Below are positions 19,319 through 53,506 of a DNA stretch of 64,000 nucleotides, in pieces. Source of the stretch: Patescibacteria group bacterium (GTDB taxonomy: Bacteria; Patescibacteriota; JABMPQ01; JBFLZX01). Position numbers and translations under genes: made by a program. The notes beneath the pieces are model-generated. The model was not told the DNA's origin. It searched no databases and worked only from the letters and a program-made list of their open reading frames with translations. Position 1 is the first letter of the stretch; every line of letters begins with the position of its first letter. The stretch is from assembly GCA_040756075.1 (NCBI GenBank), contig JBFLZX010000001.1, positions 28,787 through 92,786 of the forward strand, in the 5' to 3' direction.

Positions 19319-19320
19319 TT

Positions 19321-20421: not shown

Positions 20422-20422
20422 T

Positions 20423-21632: not shown

Positions 21633-21648
21633 AAAAAAGGAGATATTG

Positions 21649-23055: not shown

Positions 23056-23081
23056 ATTATAAGACATAGAAAGGAGTGATT

Positions 23082-23531: not shown

Positions 23532-23534
23532 TAT

Positions 23535-26185: not shown

Positions 26186-26201
26186 GAAGGGCGGGCATAA
26201 G

Positions 26202-29508: not shown

Positions 29509-29515
29509 TATAAAA

Positions 29516-31785: not shown

Positions 31786-31795
31786 GGAGAAACCG

Positions 31796-32488: not shown

Positions 32489-32491
32489 TAA

Positions 32492-34330: not shown

Positions 34331-34344
34331 CGCAGGGGGGCGTT

Positions 34345-35127
34345 ATGAAAATAAAAGAACTTTATTCATTGAAAGATAAAACAGCCATTATTACGGGCGG
34401 AGGCGGTAAAGTTGGTAAGTTTATAGTACGGGGCTTATGGGAGGCTGGTGCAAAATGCATTATTTTAAGTAGAAAAAAAGCGAATGCCTCTGATTTATTA
34501 AAAGAGGCAAAACTAAATGGTTACTCTTTATCTTTTTTAGCCTGTGATATTACAAAAGAGAAAGACCTTATAAAAATTAGTAAAAAATTAGCAAAAAATA
34601 AAAATATTAAAATATTAATTAATAATGCAGTTTATACTATAAGCAAAAATATTGAAAGCTTAACATATCAAGATTGGCAGAAAACATATGAGGTTAATCT
34701 TTTAGGGGGATTTCTTTGTGTGAAACATATCGGTCAATTAATTAAAAAAAACGGAGGCGGGAGCATAATTAACATAGGTTCTCATTATGGTTGTATTTCT
34801 TGTGATGAACGCATATATCGTAATAAGAATATAGCAAGCTCTTTATCATATGCAACTACAAAATCTGGAATTTTAAATTTTACACGTTATATCGCTACGC
34901 ACTGGGCAAAATATAAGATTAGGTGCAATACAATTTCTCCAGGAGGCTTTCAGGACAAAAATAATAACGATTATTATTTTAGAAGAGAGTATAAAAAAAG
35001 AGTTCCTCTTGGCAGAATGGCTTTCGAAGATGATATCAAGGGCGTAGCAGTATTTTTAGCTTCGGAAGCCTCGCAATATATTACTGGGCAAAATATTATT
35101 GTTGATGGCGGATGGACTGCTTGGTAA
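34345..35127 (+). CDS. Short-chain dehydrogenase/reductase (classical SDR)
   Basis: TGGGGKVGKF cofactor motif and a YxxxK catalytic pair (YATTK). Confidence 0.7.
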   Translation: MKIKELYSLKDKTAIITGGGGKVGKFIVRGLWEAGAKCIILSRKKANASDLLKEAKLNGYSLSFLACDITKEKDLIKISKKLAKNKNIKILINNAVYTISKNIESLTYQDWQKTYEVNLLGGFLCVKHIGQLIKKNGGGSIINIGSHYGCISCDERIYRNKNIASSLSYATTKSGILNFTRYIATHWAKYKIRCNTISPGGFQDKNNNDYYFRREYKKRVPLGRMAFEDDIKGVAVFLASEASQYITGQNIIVDGGWTAW

Positions 35128-35153
35128 AAATAGCTTAATAGGTAAGGATCTTT

Positions 35154-36098
35154 ATGAGATATAGAATTTTAGGTAAAACAGGTTTTAAAATTTCAGAAAT
35201 TTCTTTAGGGACTGTTGAGCTTGCACAAGATTACGGATTGTCTAAAGCTCCATCACGAAAAGACGCAGTAAATCTTATAAAATATGCTTTAGATAATGGG
35301 ATTAATTTTATTGATACTGCCAGGGCATATGATCCTGCGGAAGATATTATTGGTGAAGCTATCAGAGATAGGAAGGCTAATCGTCCCATAGTAGCTACTA
35401 AATTAGAATATTTTTTTAATGATGAATTAGGCGAGAAAGAACTGTTTAAGTTTTATAAAAAATCTATAGAGACTTCTTTGGATAGGCTAGGGGTAGATAT
35501 TATTGATATCCTAAAGCTGCATCAGACCGATAAAAATACTTTAAAGATTCCTGGATTACTTGAAGTATTAAGAAAGTTAAAAAAAGACCAAAGGATTAAG
35601 TTTTTAGGTGTGTCTATTTCTGATGTAAGTACTGCTAGAGAACTTATTAACAGTGATATTTTCGATGTAATACAAGTTGCTTTTAATGTATTCGATCAAA
35701 GATTGGAAAAGGAAATTATATATGCATCTTTAGAAAAAAAAATCGGTGTTATTGTGCGTTCAGCTTTTATGAGAGGAATCATTCCTTGTCCATTTGAGAA
35801 AGTTCCTTCTTTGCTTGTTTCTTTGATTCCTTACAAAGAACGCTTAAATTCGATATCAAATAGTATTAATGTTGAACCATATGAGGCCGCTTTATGTTTT
35901 CCTCTTACATTAAATGAGGTATCTACAACTATCGTAGGGATGGAAAATATAAGCTTATTAAGAAAAAATATCGAAGCAGTTAATAAATTCGATATTGTAT
36001 TAAATAATATTTATGAATTTAAAAATATGGCTATAGATAATGAATTTTTAATTACGCCAGCATTATGGGATGCTGCGTCAACAAAGGCTAAGGGATAG
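35154..36098 (+). CDS. Aldo/keto reductase family oxidoreductase
   Basis: YRILGKTGFKISEISLGT N-terminus and the TIM-barrel AKR pattern. Confidence 0.65.
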   Translation: MRYRILGKTGFKISEISLGTVELAQDYGLSKAPSRKDAVNLIKYALDNGINFIDTARAYDPAEDIIGEAIRDRKANRPIVATKLEYFFNDELGEKELFKFYKKSIETSLDRLGVDIIDILKLHQTDKNTLKIPGLLEVLRKLKKDQRIKFLGVSISDVSTARELINSDIFDVIQVAFNVFDQRLEKEIIYASLEKKIGVIVRSAFMRGIIPCPFEKVPSLLVSLIPYKERLNSISNSINVEPYEAALCFPLTLNEVSTTIVGMENISLLRKNIEAVNKFDIVLNNIYEFKNMAIDNEFLITPALWDAASTKAKG

Positions 36099-36105
36099 TT
36101 TTGTT

Positions 36106-37608
36106 ATGGCACATCATATAAAGAAACAAATTATGAAGGATACTGCTAAATTGACATCTGCTCAATACTTTTCTCAGGGATTAGGTTTCGTTACGTCTAT
36201 AATGATTCGTCGTTATTTAGGGCCATACTTTACAGGCATATGGAGTCTTCTGCGGATTATTTTAGATTATTCTGCTTATAATTCTTTGGGTGTAGATAGA
36301 GCCGCAATGTATAAGATACCATTTTTTATCGGACAGAATAAGCAGGAAGAGGTAAGAGAGATACAGAATTGTAGTTTTAGTTTTATGTTTTTAGCTTCAC
36401 TCCTCACAAGCGTATTGCTTGCTATAATTACAACATTTATAAAACATAGGTATCCTATAGAAGTAGTGGTTGGTTTATATGCGCTTTCTATTATTGCAAT
36501 TGTAGAAAAAATCAGCGCTTTTTTAATCTTATTGCCTAAGGCAGAAGGCGATTTTTCTGTTTTAAGTAAAGCCATAATTTTTGATGCCATTCTTAATATT
36601 ACATTAGTATTTTTACTAGTAAGGCCATTTTTTATATACGGTCTTTATACAATGATGTTTCTTTCAGCAGTAATAAATGCTGTGTTTGTATATAGCCTTA
36701 TAAAATGTAAGGTAAAATTAATCATAGATACTAAAATAATAAAAGGGCTTATAAAATATGGGTTCCCTATCCTTGGAATATCTCTTTTAACTGTTATATT
36801 AAGAAGCGTGGATAGGATTATTATTGCAAAGATGCTTGGCGTGACTTTTGTGGGATATTTTAGCCTAGGAATTATGACAAGAAATTATGCAGAAATTTTT
36901 GCGAGTTTTTCAACGGTATTAAGGCCAAGGATGATGCAGGCCTATGGAAAAGAAGAAAAAATAGAACACATGGAGAAGTTTGTGATTGGTTCATGTGAAA
37001 TTATAGCATTTACCTTGCCGATTATTTTAAGTATTATATATTTTTTAGGGCCGGTATTAGTCAGGCTGCTGTTGCCTAAGTTTATCCCTGGTATTATAGT
37101 TATGCAAATTCTTCTTCTAGATTCTTTTTTCCACTCAACTTATATACAGTCTCAACAATTTATAATTGCAATAGGCAAACAAAAAAAGATAATGGCTATA
37201 ATAACAGGAGTGATTATTTTAAATGGTATATTAGATTACTTTCTTATCAAAATGGGGCTAGGGATTGCAGGAGTTGCTGCGAGCACAGCATTTAGTTCAT
37301 TTTTGAGCTTTATATTAGTACAAATTGTTTCAATGAGATATTTTATGAATAATAAAGATATTATCTTTTTTATCATAAGGGTATTGGTTCCTGTATTTTA
37401 TATAAGCTTAGTATCAATTTTTATAGGGAATATAATTTTAGTGGCTAATCAGGTAATTGATTTATTATTAAAAATTGTTATAGTTCTTACTTCATCTTTG
37501 CCGTTGTTATTCTACTTAAACAGAAGGATTAATTTTATTCCAGTTTTAGTTTCTCTGATAAAAGGAAAATTTGGGATTAAAGACGATAATTACACAGATC
37601 TAATATAG
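36106..37608 (+). CDS. Wzx-like oligosaccharide flippase (MOP/polysaccharide biosynthesis protein family)
   Basis: About 12 TM helices. The N-terminus (KLTSAQYFSQGLGFVTSIMIRRYLGP) is typical of Wzx/PST flippases. The start is taken at the internal ATG 36106. Confidence 0.65.
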   Translation: MAHHIKKQIMKDTAKLTSAQYFSQGLGFVTSIMIRRYLGPYFTGIWSLLRIILDYSAYNSLGVDRAAMYKIPFFIGQNKQEEVREIQNCSFSFMFLASLLTSVLLAIITTFIKHRYPIEVVVGLYALSIIAIVEKISAFLILLPKAEGDFSVLSKAIIFDAILNITLVFLLVRPFFIYGLYTMMFLSAVINAVFVYSLIKCKVKLIIDTKIIKGLIKYGFPILGISLLTVILRSVDRIIIAKMLGVTFVGYFSLGIMTRNYAEIFASFSTVLRPRMMQAYGKEEKIEHMEKFVIGSCEIIAFTLPIILSIIYFLGPVLVRLLLPKFIPGIIVMQILLLDSFFHSTYIQSQQFIIAIGKQKKIMAIITGVIILNGILDYFLIKMGLGIAGVAASTAFSSFLSFILVQIVSMRYFMNNKDIIFFIIRVLVPVFYISLVSIFIGNIILVANQVIDLLLKIVIVLTSSLPLLFYLNRRINFIPVLVSLIKGKFGIKDDNYTDLI

Positions 37609-37669
37609 TTTTTATCCAGTTGTTGAAATATTAAGAATAATAATAGTGTTTGGAAAGGAGTTTTGGATT

Positions 37670-38395
37670 ATGAATTGCGTTCTTATAATGGCTAAAGAGG
37701 GAAGCAGCCTTGCCGGAAAAAATATATGGAATATAAGGGGTAGGACATTGCTTAACTGGCTTATAGATGACGCAAGGAAGTCATCTTTAGTTAATAAGGT
37801 ATTCGTTTCAACGAATGGTAAAGAAACAGCACAGATAGCAGAGAGGGCTAATGTTGAGTTAATTATTAGGAGTGACGATCTTGCAAAAAATGAGAATTTT
37901 CCGCAAGCTGTAGATCATGCTATAAATTATATTAAACAGAAATATGACGATCTTCAAATTATAACTATATCTCAATGCGTCGTTCCTTTTAGGGCCCCAG
38001 ATATATTTGATAGGTGTATTTCTTTTCTTCTGAAAAACAAAAATTATGATTCGGTCGTAACAATTAGAAAGACAGCAGATATTCCGGAAACGATCATGAA
38101 AGAAGAGAATGGATATTTGATGCCATATTTTTCGGAGCATCATGCTAAGTCTTTTTTATCCCGTCAGGATAGCCAGGCCTACGGAATAGATCATGTTATA
38201 GAATGTTTCCGTTATTCTTCATGGTTAAATAGAGAAAAAGGCATAAAACCTTGGTCATATCTTGGCAGAAAAATAAAGGGGATAGAGCAAGATTACCATA
38301 ATCCTAACTGTTTTGTAGATGTGCATACGCTAGATGACATAAGGTGGCTAGAATTTTTAGTCGATAATATTGGTTTTGAAGGAATGAAAAAATAA
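37670..38395 (+). CDS. Acylneuraminate (nonulosonate) cytidylyltransferase, NeuA-like
   Basis: MNCVLIMAKEGSSLAGKNIWNIRGRTLLNWLI corresponds to the IPARGGSKG..KN...GKPLI block. GGAAAGGAG RBS. Confidence 0.65.
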   Translation: MNCVLIMAKEGSSLAGKNIWNIRGRTLLNWLIDDARKSSLVNKVFVSTNGKETAQIAERANVELIIRSDDLAKNENFPQAVDHAINYIKQKYDDLQIITISQCVVPFRAPDIFDRCISFLLKNKNYDSVVTIRKTADIPETIMKEENGYLMPYFSEHHAKSFLSRQDSQAYGIDHVIECFRYSSWLNREKGIKPWSYLGRKIKGIEQDYHNPNCFVDVHTLDDIRWLEFLVDNIGFEGMKK

Positions 38396-38420
38396 ACGAA
38401 ACCACATCGAAGGAGAAAAA

Positions 38421-39176
38421 ATGAATCTAAAAAAAAGATTGAAATTAAAGAAGATAACAGTAGGTTCTTGGATAACCATTGGGGATTCTTCTGTGGCAGA
38501 GATTATGGCGAAATCTGATTTTGATTGGCTTGTGGTAGATATGGAGCATAGTGCTATAGAATTAGATGCTGCACAAAAACTTATACGGATTATTGAGCTT
38601 GCTGGTTGCATACCATTGGTTAGGGTAGGAGAGAATAATCCAGCGCTTATAAAACGTGTTATGGATGCAGGTGCGCATGGCGTAGTGGTTCCGATGGTTA
38701 ATAGCAAAGAAGAAGCCATAAGGGCTGTTAGAGCAGTTAAATACCCCCCCGGCGGTATAAGAGGCGTAGGGCTTGCGCGTGCACAAGGCTATGGTATGAG
38801 CTTCGAAAGCTATAAAAATTGGCTTAATCAGAATAGCATAGTAATTGTTCAGATAGAACATATAAATGCGGTTAAGAACCTTCAGCAGATATTAGACGTA
38901 GAGGGAGTGGATGGTTTTATAGTAGGGCCTTATGACCTCTCTGGTTCAATCGGAAAACCAGGAGAATTTAACGATCCCGAAGTAAAGGCTGCTTTAGAAA
39001 GAATAAAAATTGTGGCGGAGCAATTACATAAGCCTTCAGGAATCCACGTTATTCCTCCTGATTATAGAGAGGTAAATAAAAGGATAAAAGAAGGCTATAG
39101 TTTTATTGCATTTAGCCTTGATACATTATTTTTGGGGAAAAGCTGCAGAAATGGGCTTTCTAAAATCACAAGATAA
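38421..39176 (+). CDS. HpcH/HpaI-family class II pyruvate-dependent aldolase
   Basis: VGSWITIGDSSVAEIMAKSDFDWLVVDMEHS, VRVGENNP and MVNSKEEA...KYPPGGIRG blocks are characteristic of HpcH/HpaI/YfaU aldolases. Confidence 0.7.
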   Translation: MNLKKRLKLKKITVGSWITIGDSSVAEIMAKSDFDWLVVDMEHSAIELDAAQKLIRIIELAGCIPLVRVGENNPALIKRVMDAGAHGVVVPMVNSKEEAIRAVRAVKYPPGGIRGVGLARAQGYGMSFESYKNWLNQNSIVIVQIEHINAVKNLQQILDVEGVDGFIVGPYDLSGSIGKPGEFNDPEVKAALERIKIVAEQLHKPSGIHVIPPDYREVNKRIKEGYSFIAFSLDTLFLGKSCRNGLSKITR

Positions 39177-39185
39177 AAGGAGAAA

Positions 39186-39968
39186 ATGAATATGAAAATA
39201 GTCGGTTTTATACCTGCTCGTATGGGTTCAAGTCGTTTTCCAGGTAAGCCGCTAGCAGATATTTTAGGAAAAGCGATGATAGAACATGTTTATTATCGTA
39301 GTAAGCTATCAGATAAGCTAGACGACCTTTATATTGCAACGCCTGATAAAGAAATAGAGGACTATTGTCTTAGCAGGGATATAAAAGTTGTAATGACCAG
39401 CCCAGTGCATGAACGCGCTACCGATAGGACTGCCGAGGCAACGCAGAAAATAGAGAATAAAACGAATGAGAAAATAGACATTGTGATACTAATACAAGGC
39501 GATGAGCCTTTGTTATATCCTGAAATGATTAATCTTGCGTTGAAACCACTTATTAATGACAGTAATATTTTGACTTCTAATCTTATGTCGCCATTAAAAT
39601 CAATTGAGGAACAGGAAGATCCCAATGAGGTAAAGGTAGTAGTAGATAAAGATAATTTTGCCCTTTATTTTTCAAGAGAGCCTATACCATCAAGGAAAAA
39701 AGGCGCTAAGAATTTTGTTACAATGAAGCAGGTATGTATTATGCCTTGGAGAAGAGATTTTTTATTTAAATACACCAGCCTTAAGCAGACGCCGCTTGAG
39801 ATAATTGAATCGGTGGATACGCTTAGATGCATTGAGAATGGCTTTAAAGTAAAGATGGTTCCTTGCGATTTTAATACCTATAGTGTTGATACAATTAATG
39901 ATTTGAATAAGGTAAGAGAAATGATGAAGAAAGATAGTTTATTTTTAAAATATAGTAATATAAGGTAA
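39186..39968 (+). CDS. 3-deoxy-manno-octulosonate cytidylyltransferase-like (KdsB family)
   Basis: KIVGFIPARMGSSRFPGKPLADILGKAMIEHV matches the KdsB N-terminal signature. AAAGGAG RBS. Confidence 0.7.
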   Translation: MNMKIVGFIPARMGSSRFPGKPLADILGKAMIEHVYYRSKLSDKLDDLYIATPDKEIEDYCLSRDIKVVMTSPVHERATDRTAEATQKIENKTNEKIDIVILIQGDEPLLYPEMINLALKPLINDSNILTSNLMSPLKSIEEQEDPNEVKVVVDKDNFALYFSREPIPSRKKGAKNFVTMKQVCIMPWRRDFLFKYTSLKQTPLEIIESVDTLRCIENGFKVKMVPCDFNTYSVDTINDLNKVREMMKKDSLFLKYSNIR

Positions 39969-39972
39969 CTAT

Positions 39973-41478
39973 ATGAGAAAGAAAATTAAAATATTACTCG
40001 TTTATCCAAACATCCCAATGATGTTAGTAACGCCTTTATCAATTGCTATTTTTACTTGGATTTTAAGGCAGGAAGGTTTTGAAGTAGATCTTTTCGATAC
40101 TACTCAATATGGGGAGGGAAATTTAAGTAGCCCACAGAATCGCGTCAAGTACCTTCAGGCGCGCAATATATTTACTGAAAAAAATTTAATACTTTTAAAA
40201 TCTAACAGTATGGAGAATGATTTTAAGTTAAAACTGGAAGCATTTAAACCAGATATTTTACTCTATTCATTTACCGAAGATGCCTTGGGGCGGGCTTTGC
40301 AGCTATTGCGAGTTTCAAATACTTTCAACATACCAACAGTTGTTGGCGGTGTATTAGCAACTGCTGATCCGGATTGGTTAATTTTATTTCCGGAAATTTC
40401 AATGATTGGAGTTGGAGAGGGGGAAGAAGTTGTTAGAGAGTTGGCTTTACGATTATCTCAAGGAAGAGATTTTAACGATATAGCTAATTTATGGATTAAA
40501 TTAAGTAATGGATCTGTATTGCGTAATCCAATCAGGCCCTATGTTAATTTAACCGATTATTTCACAGATTTTTCTCTATTTGATGAAGTTCGTTTTGAGC
40601 GCCCAATGGGAGGTAAAATACACCGTGCTTTGCCGATCGAAACATATAGAGGATGCCCTAATAGCTGTACTTTTTGCAATTCACCGATGCATAACAGGAT
40701 TGCCAAGGAGCATAATTGGGTGTATCTTCGGCGTAAATCAATAGAGTGGATGAGAAAGGAAATAAAACATCTTCTGGATGATTATAACGTAAATCTTTTA
40801 TATTTTATAGACGATAGCTTTTTAGCTAGACCATTAAACGAAATCAAAGATTTTATAGAAATGTATAAAGAATTTCGTGTTCCTTTTTGGTTTAATACCC
40901 GTCCCGAGGATTGCGCTCTGGATATATTAAAAAAACTCAAAGAAGTAGGGCTTTTTAGAGTTTCTTTTGGCGTTGAGTCTGGAAATGCACATTTTCGTGA
41001 AAAATATTTAGGTAGGAGGGTTTCAAATGAAAAATTATTGCATTATTTCAATATTATTAGCGATAGTGGCATCGATTTCAGCATTAATTACATAATAGGC
41101 TTTCCTTTTGAAACGCGCGAAATGGTTTTTGATAGTATACGTCTCGCTAAGCAGATAAAGGGATACGATTCTATTACTGTAAGTATTTTTACCCCTTATA
41201 GGGGGACGATTTTACGGCAGGCAGCAATAGAAGCCGGATGGCTTGATCCTGACGCTTTAACAACACATACCACCGCTAGTTCAATATTTAAGATGCCTTT
41301 ATTTACATCACGGCAAATAGATGGTCTTATACGGACATTTCCTTTATATGTTGAGTTTGAAGAATCTCTTTGGGCTGAAATAGGAAAGGCAGAGATGTTT
41401 GAGCCTGGAGGAGAAGAGATATTGGCTAAATATTCAGAATTATATAAAAAACGTAGGTGGGAGAAAAAGAGAGCATAG
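39973..41478 (+). CDS. B12-binding radical SAM protein
   Basis: N-terminal B12-binding-like domain. Radical SAM motif YRGCPNSCTFCNSP. Confidence 0.75.
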   Translation: MRKKIKILLVYPNIPMMLVTPLSIAIFTWILRQEGFEVDLFDTTQYGEGNLSSPQNRVKYLQARNIFTEKNLILLKSNSMENDFKLKLEAFKPDILLYSFTEDALGRALQLLRVSNTFNIPTVVGGVLATADPDWLILFPEISMIGVGEGEEVVRELALRLSQGRDFNDIANLWIKLSNGSVLRNPIRPYVNLTDYFTDFSLFDEVRFERPMGGKIHRALPIETYRGCPNSCTFCNSPMHNRIAKEHNWVYLRRKSIEWMRKEIKHLLDDYNVNLLYFIDDSFLARPLNEIKDFIEMYKEFRVPFWFNTRPEDCALDILKKLKEVGLFRVSFGVESGNAHFREKYLGRRVSNEKLLHYFNIISDSGIDFSINYIIGFPFETREMVFDSIRLAKQIKGYDSITVSIFTPYRGTILRQAAIEAGWLDPDALTTHTTASSIFKMPLFTSRQIDGLIRTFPLYVEFEESLWAEIGKAEMFEPGGEEILAKYSELYKKRRWEKKRA

Positions 41479-41479
41479 G

Positions 41480-42391
41480 ATGAAAATATTAATCACTGTA
41501 TCTAGTTTCGGAAAATATGACCAGACTCCTTTGAATATAATAAAAAAACGTGGTTATGAAATTAAGCTTAATCCTTATGGAAGAAAACTGACTAAGGAAG
41601 AAACGATATCACTTTATCAAGATGATGTATGTGGAGTTATCGCGGGCCTTGAGATAATAGATAAAGAAGTTATTAATAATGCTAGTAAGCTTAAGGTTAT
41701 ATCTCGTTGCGGGACAGGTATCGATAACATTGATATAAAAGAGGCTAAGCGCAAAAGGATCAAAATTTATAATACTCCAGATTCACCATCGGATGCAGTA
41801 GCAGAATTAACTACTTGTTTAATATTAGCTTTATTGCGTCAGGTGACATTAACAGATAGAGAAATACGGCGCCATGAATGGAATAAACGCATAGGATCGC
41901 TTCTTAAGGGGAAGAAAATAGGTATTATTGGCATGGGGAAAATAGGTCGAAAGGTTGCTAAGATAATCGAGGTATTCGATACGGATATTTTCTATTATGA
42001 CCCCAATGTTAATATTCATAAATATAAAAAGGTAAGTTTGAATAAATTATTAGAAGCAGCAGATATTGTTAGTCTTCATGCAGCATATTTAAAGAAGAAT
42101 AAGCATCTGATAGGCAAGAGGGAAATAGAGAAGATGAAAAAAGATTCTTTTTTAATTAATTGTTCCAGAGGTGAAATAGTAGATGAATGCGCTCTTTATT
42201 CAGCTCTTAAAAGAGGCGCATTAAAAGGAGCGGGTTTAGATGTATATGCAGATGAGCCTTATCATGGGCCATTTGCAGAGCTAGATAACGTTATTCTTAC
42301 GCCCCATATAGGTTCTTATACTAAGGAAACGCGTATCCAGATGGAGATAGAATCTGCGAAAAACTTATTAAAAGGCATGGGTAATGGTTAA
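41480..42391 (+). CDS. D-isomer-specific 2-hydroxyacid dehydrogenase (PGDH/GDH-like), NAD-dependent
   Basis: GIIGMGKIGRKVAKI Rossmann motif and a C-terminal catalytic His region (ILTPHIGSYT). The start is taken at the ATG 41480, right after the upstream stop. Confidence 0.7.
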   Translation: MKILITVSSFGKYDQTPLNIIKKRGYEIKLNPYGRKLTKEETISLYQDDVCGVIAGLEIIDKEVINNASKLKVISRCGTGIDNIDIKEAKRKRIKIYNTPDSPSDAVAELTTCLILALLRQVTLTDREIRRHEWNKRIGSLLKGKKIGIIGMGKIGRKVAKIIEVFDTDIFYYDPNVNIHKYKKVSLNKLLEAADIVSLHAAYLKKNKHLIGKREIEKMKKDSFLINCSRGEIVDECALYSALKRGALKGAGLDVYADEPYHGPFAELDNVILTPHIGSYTKETRIQMEIESAKNLLKGMGNG

Positions 42392-43052
42392 ATATAAATT
42401 TTTATCTCATAAAATAGAAAAATATATGCCGTCTTATGGCAAAATAGATAGGGTGTGGACAAGGAGAACGAAGTCGATTCAAAAAGGGGATTCCTGCAAT
42501 ACTTTTGAGATAAGAATACCTAATCATATAGGGACGCATGTCGATGCCCCAGCTCATTTTTTTGAATCTGCTTTAAAAATATCAGATTTTTCTGCTAGGG
42601 AATGCATATTTAATGATCCCTATATTTTAAATTGCTCTTTAAAAAATAATGAACTTTTAGACATTCGACATCTAAAAAATATTCCCAAAAAAAAGATTGA
42701 TATTTTACTTTTTAAGACTAATTTTCAGAAATTTAGAGGCCAAGATGTATATTTTTTAAATAATCCTGGTATTTCTTATGAAGTGCCATTATGGTTAAAG
42801 AAAAATTTTCCTTCGATTAAAGCCATAGGTATTGATTTTGTATCTATATCATGTTTTAAAAGAAGGAAAACTCTGCAGGGAGTTTATGCCCACAGGGCCT
42901 TCCTTAATCCAAAATCATCCCGTTCAATATTAATCATTGAAGATATGGACTTATCAGGTAAATTGCAGAATTTAAAACAAGTAATTATCTCACCATTTAG
43001 GTTTACAGAGATAGATAGCTCTTTTTGTACTATTATCGGTATTTTTAAATGA
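42384..43052 (+). CDS. Putative cyclase-family metal hydrolase (kynurenine formamidase-like fold)
   Basis: HIGTHVDAPAHFF matches the cyclase-family H-x-G-T-H-x-D-A-P-x-H motif. Confidence 0.55.
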   Translation: MVKYKFLSHKIEKYMPSYGKIDRVWTRRTKSIQKGDSCNTFEIRIPNHIGTHVDAPAHFFESALKISDFSARECIFNDPYILNCSLKNNELLDIRHLKNIPKKKIDILLFKTNFQKFRGQDVYFLNNPGISYEVPLWLKKNFPSIKAIGIDFVSISCFKRRKTLQGVYAHRAFLNPKSSRSILIIEDMDLSGKLQNLKQVIISPFRFTEIDSSFCTIIGIFK

Positions 43053-43702
43053 TAAGAACTATTATTTTTGATTTTGATGGCGTTATTGCGGAATCAGTTG
43101 ATATTAAAACAAGAGCTTTTATATATTTATTTAAAGATTATCATAAAAGCATTCAAGATAAAGTAAAAAAATTACACCTTAATAATGGAGGAATGTCTAG
43201 GTACAAAAAGTTTAAAATTATATATGAAAAATTTTTGAATAAGCGGCTCGATAAAATTACTTCTAATCGACTAGGGAAAGATTTTTCGCGTTTTTGCTAT
43301 CAGGGAGTTATTAAAGCGCCGCTTGTTAAGGGCGCAAAGCAATTTCTTAAAAAATCATATAAGAAATATAATTTGTATATTGTATCTGGTACGCCGGAAT
43401 CAGAGATAAAAAGAATCATTAAAGAAAAAGGCCTTAGCCGCTATTTTCGGAGTGTTTATGGTTCGCCGAAATATAAGGGAGAACTTTGTAAGGCGATAAT
43501 AAGAAAAGATAAGATTTTACCTCGAGAGGCTGTTTTTATCGGCGATTCAGTTAATGATTTAAAGGGTGCAATGGAAGCTGGATTATATTTTGTTGCTAGG
43601 GTGATAAATAGAAATAACCCTCTTTTAAGATTGAGGCCAAAATATAAGTTGAAGGATTTATGTAATCTTAAAAGAGTTATAATAAAATTAAATAGGGAGT
43701 AA
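43049..43702 (+). CDS. HAD-superfamily hydrolase/phosphatase
   Basis: IIFDFDGVIAES motif I, and FIGDSVNDLKGA motif IV region. Confidence 0.7.
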   Translation: MIRTIIFDFDGVIAESVDIKTRAFIYLFKDYHKSIQDKVKKLHLNNGGMSRYKKFKIIYEKFLNKRLDKITSNRLGKDFSRFCYQGVIKAPLVKGAKQFLKKSYKKYNLYIVSGTPESEIKRIIKEKGLSRYFRSVYGSPKYKGELCKAIIRKDKILPREAVFIGDSVNDLKGAMEAGLYFVARVINRNNPLLRLRPKYKLKDLCNLKRVIIKLNRE

Positions 43703-43708
43703 CATATT

Positions 43709-44614
43709 ATGAAAGCGACTGTTTTTGGAGGGGCGGGTTTTTTAGGTAGGCATATTGTTAATAAACTATCAAAAATGGGTTATTTTATAAAAGTTTTGGA
43801 TACTAATACCTCAAATAGAATTAATGCAAAAAATATTGAATACATAAAAGGAAGCATCTTAGATGATAAGGCAATAAAAAAAGCATTAGAGGGTAGTAAT
43901 GTAGTTTTCCATTTAGCGGCTTTAGCTGATATCGATAGGTCATCAAAGGAGCCGATAAATACTATAGATATCAATATCGGCGGGCTTGTAAGGTGTCTTG
44001 ATGCGGCAAGTAAATTAGGGGTAAAAAGGTTTATTTATGCTAGCTCTGTTTATGTCACAGGGACTATGGGTTCATTTTATAGAGTATCTAAGCTTGCCGG
44101 AGAAGAGTTGTGTAAGGTTTATCATGAAGAATATGGTTTACCGTATAGCATAGTAAGATACGGTTCTTTGTATGGGGAAGATGCTAATGAATGGAATTTT
44201 ATCAGTAGGATATGCAAACAACTTATAGAGAATAAAAAGTATGTGTATTATGGCAATGGTAAAGAGATCAGAGAGTTTATTCATATTGTCGATGCGGCAG
44301 AAGGAAGTATTAAAGTGAGCAGGGATGAAAAATTTGAGAATAAGACAGTACTTATAACGGGTCATCAAAAGATGAACATGGAAGAGTTTTTTGAGCTTGT
44401 AAAGGAAATTATGAATGGCGAAATTGAAATAAGATATTCGATGGATATTGAGTATCGAGAAAGGCATTATAATGTTACACCATACAGATTTCAACCAGAA
44501 GTGCCTCTTAGGATAAATATGGATCAATACATAGATATAAATGAAGGTATAATTGCGTGCTTGGCAAAAGCAAAAGAGAATTTAGAGAGTAGATATGAAA
44601 AAAAAACAGTATAA
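43709..44614 (+). CDS. NAD-dependent epimerase/dehydratase (extended SDR)
   Basis: ATVFGGAGFLGRHI Rossmann motif and a YxxxK pair (YRVSK). Confidence 0.65.
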   Translation: MKATVFGGAGFLGRHIVNKLSKMGYFIKVLDTNTSNRINAKNIEYIKGSILDDKAIKKALEGSNVVFHLAALADIDRSSKEPINTIDINIGGLVRCLDAASKLGVKRFIYASSVYVTGTMGSFYRVSKLAGEELCKVYHEEYGLPYSIVRYGSLYGEDANEWNFISRICKQLIENKKYVYYGNGKEIREFIHIVDAAEGSIKVSRDEKFENKTVLITGHQKMNMEEFFELVKEIMNGEIEIRYSMDIEYRERHYNVTPYRFQPEVPLRINMDQYIDINEGIIACLAKAKENLESRYEKKTV

Positions 44615-45953
44615 AATAATTTTTTTAGCCCATTCCAATAATGACATAGACCATTTTTTGCCAATAATAAACGGTTTAAATAAGCAAACTATATTTAACC
44701 CTGAAATACTTTTTTTGAGATTCGAAGAAGAGGCTGTAAGCAATAGACTGCATAAAGAATTAATTAAAAATCTTTCAGTTGGTAAGCGGTCTGCTTCCGA
44801 TTTCTTAGAATGGCCTTTTATTTCCAGGATCCTATTCTTTATTATGAAGTATTGTTATATACGGACGAAAGGCAGAACTCTAAAAGATTTTATTAGAGGA
44901 AAAGATATAGTAAGAATTTTTTATAAGGGAGTGTATATATTACTCGATAGACTATTAAAGAGATATTGCGAACAATTATTTACCGTAGCGGCTATTAATA
45001 AAATAATGCAGAAGATTGCGCCAGATCTTGTATTAATCGATCCACAGCTTATTCAATTAGTACCTCCATTTTCAGATTTAAGATCTTATTTATCATCACA
45101 GATAGTTCAGGCTTGTAAATATAAGAGGATACCGGTTTTTATGGTATCCCATGGGGTAGAAATAATGTATGTAACACATAAAGACCACAAAATTGATGAA
45201 GCCCTAGTTTATAAACCGGATGTTTTTGGCTTGTGTAATGATAAAGATGATTTAGGTGTTAACGGGATTATCAGTAATAATGTTAGAAAAGTAATTTTGG
45301 GAGATTTAAGGTATGATAGGCGCTGGGTTGAAATACTAGAGTCTACAGCAAAAAAGATTTATAACATAAATAAACCTATTGAGAAAATTATCATCCTTTA
45401 CTTAGTAGGAAATCTTAGATTCTTGAATGATAAAAAATATGAAAAAGATATTCATAAAGACATAATATCCATACTTGATAATTATAGAAATGTAGAATTA
45501 TGGATAAAAATGCATCCTCGCGTTATAGAAGATATTGATGTGGGCGTAGCGATTAATAAGGACATATCATCAAGGATAAAGATATTTAGGAATGAGATTG
45601 ATACCAATGCATTGATACCGCATGCCGATATTTTTATATCTACTTTTTCGGGTGTTCTTTTTCAGGGTATAATGAAAAAGAAGCCGGTTATTTTCTATCA
45701 AAGATGGAGAGAACGCATGGATCATCCTATAAAAACTATTTTTGATGACAGTTACTATGTCATAAAGGCGATGAATAACGAACAGTTAAAAGAAAGTATA
45801 GCAGCTATTTTAAATTTAAAGCATATTGATGATGAAGAAGCCGATAGATTTTATAGACAGGCTGTTTGCGGCGGTATAGCAAGAGACGGCAATATTATAA
45901 ATAATTATGTAGATGAAATAAGAAATATAGTTTTAGAAAGGGCAAATGGTTAA
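44595..45953 (+). CDS. TagB/TagF/KpsC-family GT-B transferase, paralogue of 32492..34330
   Basis: C-terminal block KMHPRV ... FISTFSGVLFQG ... KPVIFYQR, the same K-x-HP / S-x-S / P-V-I-F pattern as 32492. Confidence 0.4.
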   Translation: MKKKQYKIIFLAHSNNDIDHFLPIINGLNKQTIFNPEILFLRFEEEAVSNRLHKELIKNLSVGKRSASDFLEWPFISRILFFIMKYCYIRTKGRTLKDFIRGKDIVRIFYKGVYILLDRLLKRYCEQLFTVAAINKIMQKIAPDLVLIDPQLIQLVPPFSDLRSYLSSQIVQACKYKRIPVFMVSHGVEIMYVTHKDHKIDEALVYKPDVFGLCNDKDDLGVNGIISNNVRKVILGDLRYDRRWVEILESTAKKIYNINKPIEKIIILYLVGNLRFLNDKKYEKDIHKDIISILDNYRNVELWIKMHPRVIEDIDVGVAINKDISSRIKIFRNEIDTNALIPHADIFISTFSGVLFQGIMKKKPVIFYQRWRERMDHPIKTIFDDSYYVIKAMNNEQLKESIAAILNLKHIDDEEADRFYRQAVCGGIARDGNIINNYVDEIRNIVLERANG

Positions 45954-46728
45954 GGAAGATATCGCAGAAATAACAAAAGAAGCATGGGTTAATAATTGGA
46001 AGGAGCACAGTGTTAAAGAAGTTCTACAAATATTCGAATATACTCGTGTTCAAAGATTGCTTAGTATAATGAAGCTAACTCTTCCTAAAGACGGCAGTAT
46101 AATCGAAGGAGGATGCGGCCTTGGGCCGTGGGTGATAAAATTAAGAGAACTAGGTTATGATATGGTAGGGATTGATTATGATGCCATATCAATTAATAAA
46201 TTAGGAGTTTATGATAAAAAAATTCCTTTAGCTGTCTCAGATATCGAAAATATCCCATTTAAAAACAGTCATTTTGTTGCGTATATATCCTTAGGGGTAT
46301 TAGAGCATTTTCATGAAGGACCGGAAAAGGCGATTAGCGAGGCCCAACGTATTTTAAAACCAGGAGGGCTATTTTTTGTAGTGGTGCCTAATATGAGCAT
46401 TCTTCTTAGATTAAAACTGCCTATACAAAAAGTTAAGCAGATTAAAATTTTGAGAAAAATATTCAGAAAAAAACAAAAAATATTTTATTATGAGCGTTAT
46501 TTTAAAATAAATGAAATCAAGCACCTATTAGAAAAATCTAACTTTGATGTTATGCGTATTTTTCCATTCGATCATATTTTTAGTTTTGTTTCTTTTTCGA
46601 GTGTATTTAGAAAAAAAGGGACCTATGATGGCGAAAATAACCTTGCGATTAAGTTTGCCGATTTTTTTAGCAAGATTTTGCCTTGGCAGACAGCCGGATC
46701 AATTATATTAATCGCAAAAAAAACATAA
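45946..46728 (+). CDS. Class I SAM-dependent methyltransferase
   Basis: IIEGGCGLGPW motif I and ILKPGGLFFVVVPN. Confidence 0.65.
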   Translation: MVKEDIAEITKEAWVNNWKEHSVKEVLQIFEYTRVQRLLSIMKLTLPKDGSIIEGGCGLGPWVIKLRELGYDMVGIDYDAISINKLGVYDKKIPLAVSDIENIPFKNSHFVAYISLGVLEHFHEGPEKAISEAQRILKPGGLFFVVVPNMSILLRLKLPIQKVKQIKILRKIFRKKQKIFYYERYFKINEIKHLLEKSNFDVMRIFPFDHIFSFVSFSSVFRKKGTYDGENNLAIKFADFFSKILPWQTAGSIILIAKKT

Positions 46729-49427: not shown

Positions 49428-50879
49428 ATGAATTACAAAAAGATACTTTTGTTAAGGCCAAATTATAGAGAATCGCATTATGAATACACCGGTTTGCCTG
49501 CCGGCATAGGTTATATCTCAGAAGCATTGGATAAAGCAGGTATACCGCAGGAAGTCGTTGATATGTCATTGGGGTATAATTACACCTATCTTAAAAGGCG
49601 TATTGAAAAATTTAATCCGGATATGCTTGGCGTATCATTAATGAGCTTCAGGTATAAGGACCATTATGTTTTGATTAATAAGATCAAAGATGATTTTAAA
49701 AATTTAAAGATTATTGCTGGTGGGCCGCATATCTCAACTTTTAGAGAAAAATCTTTAATTGAATGTAATGCAATAGATTACGGGGTTACTTTGGAAGGCG
49801 AAGATGCAATGCTGGAACTTTGCATGAGGCAGGATAACCCTTTTAACATAAAAGGCCTCTTCTTTAAGAATCGCGACGGGATTGTTTATACTGGTGACAG
49901 GCAATTTAAGCAAAATCCGGATGTTTTTGGATTCCCGAAATATAAATTCTTTGAAAAAGATAAATATCCTAAATTTATTTCACTTTTAACTAGTCGCGGT
50001 TGTCCGTATAATTGTATATTTTGCCCTGTTCAGTTAACAATCGGTAAAAAATTACGCGTGAGGACTCCCGAGTCCGTATTAGATGAAATAAGTTATTGGT
50101 ACGAACAAGGAATAAGAGTTTTTAATGTGGTTGATGATAATTTTACTTTTTACAAACAAAGAGTTATAGATATTTGCGATGGCATCAAGAAAAGGAAGTT
50201 TAAAAATATAACTCTAAGTTGCAGAAATGGTATACGGGCCGATACCGTTGATAGAGAAACATTAAGATTTATGAAGGAAGTCGGATTTAACTATCTTGCC
50301 TTTGGTGTTGAAAGTGGTAGCGAAAAGATATTAAAGGTGTTAAAAAAAGGAGAAAATCTGTCTAAAATAAAAACAGCGATAAAAGATGCCTGTGAGCTTG
50401 GCTTTATGGTTACTTTATTTTTTATCATCGGCATGCCATACGAGACAGAGGAAGATGTTAGCGAATCATTAAAAATTGCAATGGAATTTCCTGTTTTTGA
50501 TGTCCGTTTTTATAATCCGATACCTTTTCCAGGAACGGAGTTATATGATTGGATAGCGAAGAACAATTATTTTAACAAATCCAACAGAGATTATTTAAAT
50601 AATCTTTCTCATTGGGTAAATAAGCCAATATTTGAAACACCAGAGCTACCTTTTGAAGCAAGAAAGGTTCTCTATGAGCGGCTCAATAAGATTATAAAAA
50701 AACATACTTTTAAAACAAAGATTTTATTCTTAAAAGATACAGAAAGGTTATTTACTAACCTTGGAATACCGCTTTTTTTAAGCAAATACCTGGCTAGAAT
50801 TTATTATACGCAGTTTTTTCAAATGTCTTTTATACAATCAGGATTAGCCGCAAAATTTAAAAAGTTTATTAAAAAATAG
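49428..50879 (+). CDS. B12-binding radical SAM protein
   Basis: N-terminal B12-binding-like domain. Radical SAM motif TSRGCPYNCIFCPV. Confidence 0.75.
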   Translation: MNYKKILLLRPNYRESHYEYTGLPAGIGYISEALDKAGIPQEVVDMSLGYNYTYLKRRIEKFNPDMLGVSLMSFRYKDHYVLINKIKDDFKNLKIIAGGPHISTFREKSLIECNAIDYGVTLEGEDAMLELCMRQDNPFNIKGLFFKNRDGIVYTGDRQFKQNPDVFGFPKYKFFEKDKYPKFISLLTSRGCPYNCIFCPVQLTIGKKLRVRTPESVLDEISYWYEQGIRVFNVVDDNFTFYKQRVIDICDGIKKRKFKNITLSCRNGIRADTVDRETLRFMKEVGFNYLAFGVESGSEKILKVLKKGENLSKIKTAIKDACELGFMVTLFFIIGMPYETEEDVSESLKIAMEFPVFDVRFYNPIPFPGTELYDWIAKNNYFNKSNRDYLNNLSHWVNKPIFETPELPFEARKVLYERLNKIIKKHTFKTKILFLKDTERLFTNLGIPLFLSKYLARIYYTQFFQMSFIQSGLAAKFKKFIKK

Positions 50880-53505: not shown

Positions 53506-53506
53506 A

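Follow-up and report, generated by a model that had tools for sequence, protein, structure and literature searches.

An aldolase-cytidylyltransferase gene cluster in a Patescibacteria genome as a candidate PEP-independent route to a CMP-activated 2-ulosonic acid sugar

The Kdo pathway runs through the isomerase KdsD, the Kdo8P synthase KdsA, the phosphatase KdsC and the CMP-Kdo synthetase KdsB. The nonulosonic acid pathways (NeuB/LegI/PseI with NeuA/LegF/PseF) provide CMP-activated alpha-keto acid sugars for surface glycans. Condensation of pyruvate with an aldose into an ulosonic acid without PEP is established from chemoenzymatic synthesis with N-acetylneuraminate lyase (NanA) in the synthetic direction, which is the chemistry proposed here. 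NanA nevertheless belongs to an unrelated family of class I (Schiff-base) aldolases and serves catabolism in the cell, and its gene is not known from biosynthetic operons that carry a CMP-synthetase. Class II HpcH aldolases are also normally catabolic and their equilibrium is unfavourable for synthesis, which counts against a synthetic role for the relative described below. We analyzed an operon that joins such an aldolase to a KdsB-like enzyme, and we consider it reasonably probable that this operon encodes a route that depends on an aldolase instead of PEP and leads to a CMP-2-ulosonic (alpha-keto) acid sugar for a surface glycan. We found no published description of a route of this kind in the literature; if the reading is correct, it would represent an undescribed way of making an acidic surface sugar in which the customary PEP-dependent synthase plays no part.

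The locus comes from an uncultivated Patescibacteria genome and is a tightly packed operon. In the window (the whole stretch of 64,000 nucleotides analyzed), the cassette occupies 38421-44614 and comprises seven genes, from the aldolase through the extended SDR, all on the plus strand. With its neighbours, it reads as follows:

36070..37608, plus strand, Wzx-type flippase (Pfam Polysacc_synt/Polysacc_synt_3)
37646..38395, plus strand, divergent NeuA/PseF-like cytidylyltransferase, 'CT3b' type (partial CTP_transf_3 match, 46 bits, residues 12-153)
38421..39176, plus strand, HpcH/HpaI-family class II (metal-dependent) 2-oxoacid aldolase (HpcH_HpaI PF03328, 120 bits)
39186..39968, plus strand, KdsB-like CTP:2-ulosonate cytidylyltransferase (CTP_transf_3, 168 bits)
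39973..41478, plus strand, B12-binding radical SAM enzyme (Pfam B12-binding and Radical_SAM)
41480..42391 (ORF called from 41399), plus strand, D-isomer-specific 2-hydroxyacid dehydrogenase (Pfam 2-Hacid_dh_C, 185 bits)
42384..43052, plus strand, Cyclase-family metal hydrolase, kynurenine formamidase/isatin hydrolase fold (PF04199, 70 bits)
43049..43702, plus strand, HAD-IA phosphatase (Pfam HAD_2 and Hydrolase)
43709..44614, plus strand, short extended SDR of the epimerase/dehydratase family (PF01370, 147 bits)
44595..45953, plus strand, GT-B fold transferase of the TagF/TarL and KpsC type (weak Glyphos_transf match)
45946..46728, plus strand, class I SAM methyltransferase (Pfam)

Profile matches and motifs recovered the whole gene set named in the preliminary description, on the plus strand and in the order given there. 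The SDR epimerase, which had been included in the piece 38421-43702, does exist in the series but sits past that end coordinate. Consecutive genes from the NeuA/PseF-like one onwards are separated by 25, 9, 4, 1, -8, -4, 6, -20 and -8 nt, and because these gaps range only from -20 to 25 nt the operon genes are almost certainly co-transcribed. In a related locus (L084) with an aldolase 78% identical to that of the window, the gene order is unchanged. This identical order, together with the association of aldolase and cytidylyltransferase in 48 of the 48 related loci considered complete (at least 6 kb on both flanks), indicates that the arrangement is not due to chance. The aldolase/cytidylyltransferase gene cluster is therefore confirmed as real.

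The aldolase is proposed to perform the C-C bond-forming step. Its best NCBIfam models were HpaI (190 bits), GarL (175-177 bits) and RhmA (152 bits), and its top PDB match was HpaI (4b5s, E 4e-45). No CitE or citrate-lyase model was among its profile matches, so the CitE (citrate-lyase beta) identity raised in the preliminary description was ruled out by profile search, and the protein is classed by these matches as HpaI/GarL/RhmA-like. The Glu, Asp and Arg whose conservation was in question proved, with the proposed catalytic His, to be invariant across 20 orthologues (H43, R68, E146, D172). The window aldolase thus shares the Pfam family, the fold and the catalytic His/Arg/Glu/Asp set of the catabolic class II pyruvate aldolases HpaI, GarL and RhmA (YfaU), but it scores below every equivalog cutoff, falls in a separate and highly conserved clade (60-78% identity across phyla) and stands in an anabolic context, linked to a cytidylyltransferase.

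The activation step is proposed for the KdsB-like protein, which passed the NCBIfam KdsB subfamily model NF009905 (292 against a cutoff of 255), barely reached TIGR00466 kdsB (155.4 against 155.2) and matched best in the PDB with E. coli K-CKS (1gq9, E 3e-39, 38% identity). Its catalytic motifs PARxGSSRxPGKPL, QGDEP, YFSR, ESxDxLR and VDT are all kept. Identity to the window protein is 43-63% for the aldolase-linked proteins and 37-38% for bona fide KdsB; by this comparison the aldolase-linked proteins constitute a clade of their own.

Orthologues of the aldolase, 53-78% identical, were found in many bacterial and archaeal phyla, always in glycan loci. Bacterial carriers include Planctomycetia, Omnitrophota, Dehalococcoidia, Saccharibacteria, Syntrophomonas wolfei, Flavobacteriales and SAR86, and archaeal carriers include Hadarchaeia, Methanoperedens, Thermoplasmatales and Methanococcoides, in the last of which the cassette adjoins AglB. 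A CTP_transf_3 cytidylyltransferase lies within 8 kb of the aldolase in every complete locus; across 80 loci, it is at most two genes away in 66 and directly adjacent in 43. In addition, a CTP_transf_3::HpcH_HpaI fusion of 478 aa is encoded inside such a cassette, identically on contigs of three listed sources that are independent assemblies (ENA, JGI and Logan). The characterized relatives HpaI, GarL and RhmA are all catabolic, so the aldolase could conceivably serve catabolism or salvage by cleaving a 2-keto-3-deoxy sugar acid, its position in a glycan locus being incidental. We regard this as very improbable, since all 48 complete loci are glycan biosynthesis loci with a cytidylyltransferase, the reading frames of the operon overlap or nearly abut, the two activities are fused in one lineage, and no catabolic transporter, kinase or dehydratase was present among the annotated recurrent neighbour clusters.

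We then considered PEP-dependent synthases as the source of the activated sugar. Profile searches detected no KdsA in the window, and tblastn with a KdsA query, run without a positive control, detected no DAHP_synth_1/KdsA in 83 loci. The sole NeuB of the window lies at 26202, 12 kb upstream of the aldolase. The KdsB-like enzyme might activate a conventional Kdo or nonulosonic acid supplied by this NeuB or by a distant kdsA, while the aldolase, dehydrogenase, HAD, SDR and cyclase make something else, for instance a glyceroyl- or lactyl-type hydroxy-acid acyl substituent. The presence of the NeuB module is consistent with this, as are the legionaminic-type genes (WbuX-like, PtmE-like, NeuB) beside the cassette in a minority of loci and the resemblance of the dehydrogenase and HAD to enzymes of glycerate and hydroxypyruvate metabolism. 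However, the window NeuB has its own adjoining cytidylyltransferase (27269-28060), just 9 of the 48 complete loci have a NeuB within 8 kb, and the fusion is hard to explain with two separate products. Moreover, LPS Kdo is not expected in some of the carriers, namely archaea, CPR bacteria and Dehalococcoidia. We therefore judge this explanation unlikely. Co-occurrence, fusion, absence of KdsA from the window and NeuB's own partner together support the earlier proposal that an aldolase, rather than a KdsA/NeuB-type synthase, feeds the KdsB-like enzyme.

Around the constant trio of aldolase, cytidylyltransferase and 2-hydroxyacid dehydrogenase (the last in 42 of the 48 complete loci), we observed two alternative accessory modules, which exclude each other. 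Type A consists of SDR and HAD with or without the cyclase; type B consists of GFO and a GmhA-like SIS, with an IMPase or, alternatively, an AroB-like phospholyase standing in for HAD, never both in one locus. The presence of a phosphate-handling enzyme in both modules is in keeping with the route proposed here. The AroB-like enzyme keeps its DAHP-site motifs; AroB itself normally acts on a 3-deoxy-2-ulosonate phosphate, which points the same way. The SDR, found in 22 of the 48 loci and never alongside the GFO+SIS module, carries GxxGxxG and YRVSK (YxxxK) motifs and matched UDP-hexose and UDP-GlcA 4-epimerases in the PDB (E 1e-25 to 1e-16). The HAD phosphatase (motif I DFDGV, motif IV GDSVND), for which KdsC was not among the NCBIfam matches, is proposed to remove a phosphate ester from a sugar or sugar acid. 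The cyclase-family hydrolase, with the motif HIGTHVDAPAH and only weak PDB matches (MJ0783 and KynB), occurs in 11 of the 17 complete type A loci and appears to be an optional accessory, perhaps a lactonase or amidohydrolase. The B12-radical SAM protein has a CxxxCxxC motif at residue 228 and its best relative in L010 (513 bits); no NCBIfam model reached its cutoff (best HpnJ, 91 against 578). Of the 48 complete loci, 13 have an orthologue of it within the cassette, and its cluster counts 17 members altogether; it is probably an optional tailoring enzyme for C-methylation or rearrangement of the acid.

The true start of the dehydrogenase is the ATG at 41480, one base past the radical SAM stop; its L084 orthologue is called as 302 aa. 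Its best NCBIfam models, PGDH (243 bits) and GyaR (215 bits), were both below cutoff and its top PDB match was 1wwk, which places it nearest to enzymes of the PGDH and glyoxylate/hydroxypyruvate reductase types. Its relatives are 44-45% identical to the window protein whatever the cassette type. This near-universal enzyme has no necessary role in a plain pyruvate plus aldose scheme, which counts against the route that we favour.

What we observed is the gene content, the intact catalytic motifs, the conserved synteny, the association of aldolase and cytidylyltransferase in every complete locus and their natural fusion; from these genes we infer all the biochemical steps. A divalent metal on Glu146 and Asp172, with Arg68 and His43, would generate the enolate of a 2-oxoacid. 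The donor may be pyruvate, which would give a 3-deoxy and possibly Kdo- or Kdn-like product, or hydroxypyruvate from the adjacent dehydrogenase; hydroxypyruvate is also a substrate of related enzymes, among them the Sphingomonas hydroxy-ketoacid aldolase (PDB 6r62) recovered in the PDB search. The enolate would attack the aldehyde group of an aldose, free or phosphorylated, and the HAD phosphatase would remove the phosphate ester before or after condensation. The keto acid would then cyclize to a hemiketal, whose anomeric hydroxyl would be coupled with CTP by the KdsB-like enzyme, and PPi release would draw the reversible aldol addition towards product. Supply or tailoring of the skeleton might fall to the SDR, the cyclase-family hydrolase, the B12-radical SAM enzyme and the methyltransferase.

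In its logic this scheme follows the Kdo pathway: a sugar phosphate is lengthened by three carbons to a 2-keto acid sugar, dephosphorylated and activated with CMP. The protein proposed for activation is a genuine homologue of KdsB, as its identity to K-CKS and its motifs show, and type B relatives also possess a SIS-family isomerase. In contrast, the proposed condensing enzyme is a metal-dependent aldolase acting on a free 2-oxoacid instead of the PEP-dependent KdsA, the phosphatase is HAD-IA (or IMPase, or AroB-like phospholyase) and not KdsC-type, and a 2-hydroxyacid dehydrogenase is added. Since archaea and presumed monoderm lineages are among the carriers, the product would not be destined for lipid A. 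With nonulosonic acid pathways the cassette would share a CMP-activated product for surface glycans and similar tailoring by methyl, carbamoyl and acyl transferases, but it lacks a NeuB-family synthase, the aldolase being the proposed condensing enzyme. It also lacks aminotransferase and N-acetyltransferase genes, so its product is probably nitrogen-free.

The GT-B protein encoded next is a candidate for transfer of the activated product. It has an invariant HP motif, and its AF2 model (pLDDT 70) shows a GT-B fold. A single-sequence PDB search returned KpsC only, over the KxHP region, and the family profile returned TarL (E 4e-13), then Cps3D, then KpsC; about 36 of 83 loci have a family member next to the cassette. 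As the family is nearer TarL (CDP-alditol donor) than KpsC (CMP-Kdo), the donor could be a CDP-linked unit. The cassette might accordingly make an acyclic or C-branched hydroxy-acid unit, cytidylylated via a phosphate, which the TagF/TarL-like enzyme would polymerize into a phosphodiester resembling teichoic acid; pyruvate might, for example, add to a keto sugar, after which the dehydrogenase would reduce the 2-oxo group. D-2-hydroxyacid dehydrogenases thermodynamically favour 2-oxoacid reduction, which would pull the aldol reaction, and the dehydrogenase is a constant cassette member. However, CTP_transf_3 enzymes are known to form CMP-ulosonates only, the Kdo-type motifs are retained, and a dedicated phosphatase speaks against a phosphorylated final substrate. 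Maf/MptE-like transferases also neighbour some loci, the Maf-like one adjoining in those with a NeuA/PseF-like cytidylyltransferase, and Maf proteins use CMP donors to transfer nonulosonic acids. Overall, we hold this hydroxy-acid alternative to be even less likely than activation of an ordinary Kdo or nonulosonic acid. The neighbouring transferases (TagF/KpsC-like, Maf/MptE-like) belong to cytidine-nucleotide-donor families, which supports a CMP-2-ulosonic acid product.

The Wzx-type flippase immediately upstream sets a glycan-export context and would export the glycan; several related loci, e.g. that of Syntrophomonas wolfei (L072), likewise have a flippase of this family (cluster c28) ahead of the aldolase. 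The NeuA/PseF-like cytidylyltransferase between them has a weak PseF match and the motif AKEGSSLAGKN, and close homologues lie two genes 5' of the aldolase in L037 and L076 (362 and 345 bits). The methyltransferase downstream, with homologues in L066 and L008, is a probable O-methyl tailoring enzyme, and methyltransferases of several families are found inside cassettes (MT23 in 17 of 48; FkbM types c24 and c30).

The window has about 31% G+C and carries all of its long open reading frames on the + strand. It forms a single, very large locus for glycan biosynthesis in a Patescibacteria (CPR) MAG. The genes of the aldolase cassette and its flanks are arranged as follows.

36070-37608, + strand: Wzx-type flippase, upstream of the cassette
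37646-38395, + strand: divergent NeuA/PseF-like cytidylyltransferase, upstream of the aldolase
38421-39176, + strand: HpcH/HpaI aldolase
39186-39968, + strand: KdsB-like CTP_transf_3 cytidylyltransferase
39973-41478, + strand: B12-binding radical SAM enzyme (PF02310 and PF04055)
from 41480, + strand: D-2-hydroxyacid dehydrogenase, the true start being the ATG at 41480 and not the TTG at 41399
42384-43052, + strand: cyclase-family hydrolase, HxGTHxDxPxH readable in the sequence
43049-43702, + strand: HAD-IA phosphatase, DxDGV and GDSVND readable in the sequence
43709-44614, + strand: extended SDR, GxxGxxG and YxxxK readable in the sequence
44595-45953, + strand: TagF/KpsC-like GT-B protein, directly after the SDR
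downstream of the GT-B gene, + strand: SAM methyltransferase, GT2 and GT4

Intergenic gaps within the cassette range from -20 to +9 nt, and the gene order is exactly the same in L084, a related locus whose aldolase is 78% identical. The preliminary description had read an aldolase directly followed by a KdsB-like gene and then by radical SAM, dehydrogenase, cyclase, phosphatase and SDR genes. Profile searches and reading of the sequence recovered all of these genes in that order, but the unit extends further than had been proposed, both upstream and downstream. The radical SAM enzyme of the cassette possesses an N-terminal cobalamin-binding domain and CPNSCTFC (CxxxCxxC) at residue 228, as is typical of the B12-binding class.

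The aldolase matched PF03328 with 120 bits (cutoff 25), its residues 16-235 covering profile positions 4-215 of 221, which places it in the HpcH/HpaI superfamily. In an alignment of 20 orthologues, H43, R68, E146 and D172 were invariant, and these include the metal-binding Glu and Asp and the catalytic Arg whose conservation the preliminary description had proposed as a check. The four residues sit in the segments EHS, LVRV, QIEH and GPYDLS and, by these conserved motifs, correspond to the catalytic His45 and Arg70 and the metal-binding Glu149 and Asp175 of HpaI. The best structural match was HpaI (4b5s, E 4e-45), followed by YfaU and GarL. None of the NCBIfam equivalog cutoffs was reached, with scores of 190 against 369 for HpaI, 175-177 against 393-407 for GarL and 152 against 441 for RhmA. 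An enzyme of the CitE or malyl-CoA lyase type, which would have spoken against the proposed route, was rejected: all 20 of 20 PDB matches were HpaI, YfaU, GarL or generic HpcH proteins, no CitE-type model was present among the NCBIfam matches, and the matches lie on the HpaI/GarL/RhmA side. Since the catalytic residues are invariant while the HpaI, GarL and RhmA scores stay below their cutoffs, the protein is predicted to be a catalytically competent class II 2-oxoacid aldolase outside all specificity groups characterised so far. Conservation within its clade is unusually high: the best 120 database relatives are 62-78% identical, yet they span Omnitrophota, Nealsonbacteria, Thermodesulfobacteriota, Margulisiibacteriota, Scalinduaceae and the archaeon Methanococcoides. 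The wider family comprises 1,094 cluster representatives at E <= 1e-30. Other architectures were observed there (P0180, P0194, P0131, P0144, P0145, P0148 and P0178), namely a fusion of a Ser/Thr protein kinase with the aldolase, an aldolase fused to SH3 domains, and two or three tandem aldolase barrels. On viral contigs, we found one weak relative, on a 4-kb contig.

The neighbouring cytidylyltransferase matched the KdsB profiles NF009905 (292 against 255) and NF003952 (263 against 193), was borderline for the kdsB equivalog TIGR00466 (155.4 against a cutoff of 155.2), and had E. coli K-CKS as its best structural match. Its conserved motifs are PARMGSSRFPGKPL (CTP loop PARxGSSRxPGKPL), QGDEP, YFSR and VDT. 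Catalytic roles are assigned to Lys19, Asp95 and Asp219 after PMC3149649, in which the Lys and the two Asp are essential, and the conserved motifs contain all three. Judged from its sequence, the protein is a genuine KdsB homologue. Aldolase-linked cytidylyltransferases nevertheless form their own group, 43-63% identical to the window protein compared to 37-38% for bona fide KdsB, and the sole changes in the sugar pocket are HESGTDR to HERA(T/S)DR and LEQLR to VD(M/T)LR. Of the partners that mark a KdsB of the Kdo/lipid A context (KdsA, KdsC and KdsD), neither KdsA nor KdsC was found in the 64-kb window. As a pair, the two proteins belong to their superfamilies and fall outside both the HpaI/GarL/RhmA equivalogs and Kdo-context KdsB.

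We then compared the cassette with related loci. A scan of one genome per GTDB species gave more than 543 relatives, and the comparison was continued with the best 80 loci. All open reading frames within 8 kb of the aldolase were clustered and the cluster representatives annotated; a locus counted as complete when at least 6 kb flanked the aldolase on each side (n = 48). Among the best 80 loci, bacterial carriers were Planctomycetia, Omnitrophota, Dehalococcoidia, Saccharibacteria, Nitrospirota, Desulfobacterota lineages, Elusimicrobia, Chlorobiaceae, Flavobacteriales, SAR86 and Syntrophomonas wolfei subsp. methylbutyratica, and archaeal carriers were Hadarchaeia, Methanoperedens, Thermoplasmatales, Micrarchaeota, Woesearchaeota and Methanomicrobiales. 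At least two carriers are cultured (S. wolfei subsp. methylbutyratica JCM 14075 and Methanococcoides sp. AM1). A CTP_transf_3 cytidylyltransferase was present in every complete locus (48/48), KdsB-like alone in 18, of a divergent NeuA/PseF-like type (CT3b) alone in 13 and of both kinds in 17; it lay within two genes of the aldolase in 66 of the 80 loci and directly adjacent in 43. The 2-hydroxyacid dehydrogenase was found in 42 of the 48 complete loci.

Around these genes, we observed two accessory modules that are mutually exclusive in the 48 complete loci. Type A, to which the window belongs, carries the extended SDR and the HAD phosphatase, and 11 of 17 loci have the cyclase as well. Type B carries a GFO/IDH/MocA oxidoreductase and a GmhA-like SIS isomerase, to which is added either an inositol-monophosphatase-family phosphatase (6 loci) or an AroB-related enzyme with a classical SDR (8 loci), these two options never occurring together. 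The AroB-related enzyme is a 'sugar phosphate phospholyase (cyclizing)' (TIGR04425, 435 bits against a cutoff of 400) and is encoded in the type B2 loci L002, L021, L033, L035, L053, L066, L068 and L086-L088 (for example L033:4415-5497). Identity to the window proteins was alike in every cassette type, about 60% for the aldolase, 55-58% for the KdsB-like enzyme and 44-45% for the dehydrogenase; because they are equally similar across types, these three proteins are a constant core to which varying modules are attached. Optional tailoring genes inside the cassettes encode class I and FkbM methyltransferases, hexapeptide acyltransferases, carbamoyltransferases and B12-binding radical SAM enzymes. 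As a separate observation, G+C rises to 0.36 at 38001-42000 of the window compared to about 0.31 elsewhere, coinciding with the highly conserved aldolase, KdsB-like and radical SAM genes. Both this increase and the fact that bacterial and archaeal aldolases share 60-70% identity are compatible with horizontal spread of the cassette.

The strongest single argument for the aldolase and the cytidylyltransferase acting in one pathway is a natural fusion of the two. This 478-aa protein (P0143) contains CTP_transf_3 at residues 5-183 and HpcH_HpaI at residues 245-468, and its aldolase part is 49% identical to the window aldolase. It is identical on four contigs, three of which come from ENA, JGI and Logan assemblies (L086:8001-9437, L087 and L088), and it is surrounded by a type B cassette in the order GFO, SIS, dehydrogenase, SDR, AroB-like enzyme, 575-aa protein, fusion and GT2. 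An assembly artefact is unlikely, since the same protein is recovered on separate assemblies and inside a type B cassette.

We also searched for the synthases of the canonical pathways. To our knowledge, all established routes to Kdo, Kdn and sialic, legionaminic and pseudaminic acids use a PEP-dependent synthase of the KdsA or NeuB family. Pfam scans of essentially all long open reading frames of the 64-kb window gave no DAHP_synth_1 (KdsA) match, and profile searches of the window gave no KdsC. A tblastn search of 83 related loci, run with a provisional E. coli query and without a positive control, found no KdsA. The sole NeuB of the window (26202-27269) lies 12 kb upstream of the cassette and is directly followed by its own CTP_transf_3 gene, in a module that also has aminotransferase, GNAT, WbqC and PIG-L genes; in the complete related loci, NeuB was found within 8 kb of the aldolase in 9 of 48. 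No PEP-dependent synthase adjoins the cytidylyltransferase of the cassette. In Methanococcoides, the cassette is located three genes from the oligosaccharyltransferase AglB, so that its KdsB-like or NeuA-like enzyme cannot serve lipid A. Taken together, the universal co-occurrence, the Rosetta-stone fusion, the intact catalytic sites and the lack of canonical synthases support, as far as sequence goes, the PEP-independent aldolase route first suggested from the gene order. The cassette would encode a pathway to a CMP-ulosonic acid whose condensing step is non-homologous to the known ones and does not depend on PEP, and it is found widely among uncultivated Bacteria and Archaea.

The NeuB gene itself is part of a separate nonulosonic acid module upstream of the cassette (21574-37608). 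The first half of this module comprises an N-extended SDR, an FdtA-like cupin, a DegT aminotransferase, a B12-binding radical SAM enzyme, NeuB, its cytidylyltransferase and a further B12-binding radical SAM enzyme, and the second half comprises a GNAT fusion, WbqC, a PIG-L deacetylase, a 612-aa protein with a weak Epimerase_2 match, an SDR, an aldo-keto reductase and the flippase.

The gene at 44595-45953 could encode the transferase of the pathway. It gave only a weak Glyphos_transf Pfam match, and its single-sequence PDB matches were four KpsC beta-Kdo transferases only, over the KxHP motif, which would suggest a KpsC-type beta-Kdo transferase. A profile of 13 family members, however, matched TarL, a ribitol-phosphate polymerase, best (E 4e-13), followed by the TagF-like Cps3D and then KpsC (E 1.5e-4), and the AlphaFold model (pLDDT 70) showed a generic GT-B fold with UDP-GlcNAc 2-epimerases as the top Foldseek matches; the KpsC assignment was dropped. 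H307 is the sole invariant position of the family and P308 is present in at least 90% of sequences, so that the HP motif in the C-terminal Rossmann domain of the GT-B fold, characteristic of the TagF/TarL- and KpsC-like class, is recognizable. In an iterative search, about 36 of 83 loci had a member of this family next to the cassette, and it was often the gene immediately adjoining the aldolase. In loci with the NeuA/PseF-like cytidylyltransferase, this gene and the aldolase are separated by one for a different protein of about 420 aa (cluster c19), which gave weak MptE-like/Maf Pfam matches in 5 of 10 members (best E 1e-5) and no PDB sequence match. TagF/KpsC-like and Maf-like transferases use cytidine-nucleotide donors, and family membership does not distinguish CMP-sugars from CDP-alditols. 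The 44595-45953 protein is here only called a putative cytidine-nucleotide-type GT-B transferase, with a CMP-sugar or a CDP-alditol as donor.

In the pathway we propose, the aldolase would form a metal-bound enolate of a 2-oxoacid, which would attack the aldehyde group of an aldose, either free or phosphorylated, and the phosphatase would take off the phosphate. The KdsB-like enzyme would then cytidylylate the hemiketal of the product, pulling the reversible condensation forward, and the neighbouring GT-B enzyme would transfer it. Entry of a sugar phosphate is suggested because each cassette type has one enzyme for the removal of a phosphate ester. In type B, the AroB-like enzyme retains every AroB active-site motif (DSxxGxK, KN, IKK, RxxxNxGHTxGH, HG and KDKKN), as judged by alignment with a provisional E. 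coli AroB sequence. The substrate of AroB, DAHP, is a 3-deoxy-2-ulosonate 7-phosphate, and retention of the motifs is compatible with a DAHP-like seven-carbon aldol product of pyruvate and a tetrose 4-phosphate; the AroB-like enzyme may alternatively act on the acceptor sugar phosphate ahead of the condensation. The sugar could range from C7 to C10, and the Kdo- or Kdn-like product initially envisaged is one possibility among several.

The dehydrogenase matched PF02826 (185 bits) and PF00389 (87 bits), and these two domains, together with the SRG, DEP and PHIG segments that hold the catalytic Arg, Glu and His, assign it to the D-isomer-specific 2-hydroxyacid dehydrogenase family. It reached no equivalog cutoff (PGDH 243 against 454), and among characterised enzymes it is closest to 3-phosphoglycerate dehydrogenases and glyoxylate/hydroxypyruvate reductases. 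A plain pyruvate and aldose scheme needs no dehydrogenase, yet the enzyme accompanies the pair in those 42 loci whatever the cassette type. The role that would keep the 2-oxo group for the cytidylyltransferase is the supply of hydroxypyruvate as aldol donor, to which we give roughly a third of the credence that we give the aldolase route as a whole. Some HpcH-family aldolases take hydroxypyruvate, and 'hydroxyketoacid aldolase' entries were among the PDB matches. With this donor, the product would bear a 3-hydroxyl and therefore be Ko-like instead of 3-deoxy. Reduction of the keto group after condensation is an alternative role; tartronate-semialdehyde (GarL-like) or glyoxylate acceptors, with the dehydrogenase taking part in their supply, were also considered, and the evidence on them is neutral. 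It is conceivable, but in our view rather improbable, that the core trio builds Ko-like 3-hydroxy 2-ulosonic acids from hydroxypyruvate without oxygen and that the AroB-like sister cassettes lead to an omega-deoxy or carbocyclic (dehydroquinate-like) CMP-activated acid. If so, either product would be an undescribed class of activated sugar, spread by horizontal transfer in uncultivated Bacteria and Archaea.

The aldolase route follows a logic similar to that of the Kdo and nonulosonic acid pathways, Kdo synthesis proceeding by isomerase, condensation, phosphatase and CMP activation. The cassette differs from them in a predicted condensing enzyme of another superfamily with another donor, in another type of phosphatase and in the extra dehydrogenase. 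A conserved route of this kind, based on an aldolase, would add a third way into CMP-activated acidic sugars, by a different mechanism. It would also define an unknown sugar on the surfaces of CPR bacteria, Planctomycetes (including anammox relatives), Dehalococcoidia, Omnitrophota and several archaeal orders, lineages of whose glycobiology very little is known. It is directly testable, as the proteins are small and soluble and cultured carriers exist. In addition, the aldolase/CMP-synthetase pair may be of use as a module in biocatalysis, to make activated analogues of ulosonic acids from free keto acids. We found no description of such a cassette in full-text searches of mainly open-access literature, so that an earlier report is possible. 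Unassigned CMP-linked ulosonic acids have been reported, with no mention of an aldolase (SugarBase preprint).

The window contains five B12-binding radical SAM genes, all with CxxxCxxC (2031-3428, 24716-26185, 28057-29508, 39973-41478 and 49428-50879), two of which flank the NeuB/cytidylyltransferase pair. This arrangement suggests C-methylated or chain-extended ulosonic acids and could bear on the unassigned 'higher-carbon' CMP-ulosonic acids of the SugarBase preprint. A sulfation-like module at 17165-21385 encodes a 717-aa fusion of a sulfatase-family domain and APS kinase, then an ATP sulfurylase (PUA_2 and ATP-sulfurylase domains) and a 325-aa protein with the pyruvate-kinase barrel only (194 bits), without the usual C-terminal domain. 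At 9889-12069, we observed a 726-aa fusion of NAD-dependent epimerase/dehydratase and DegT-type aminotransferase domains, and at 52015-54130, RtcB RNA ligase and thymidylate-kinase-like genes lie mid-locus between glycosyltransferase genes. GT-C membrane glycosyltransferases (GT87, four PMT/PMT_2 and a YfhO-like protein) are encoded at 94-1296, 3490-5007, 6390-8732, 12066-13769, 15320-16993 and 55064-56632, which suggests several lipid-linked glycosylation steps at the outer side of the membrane.
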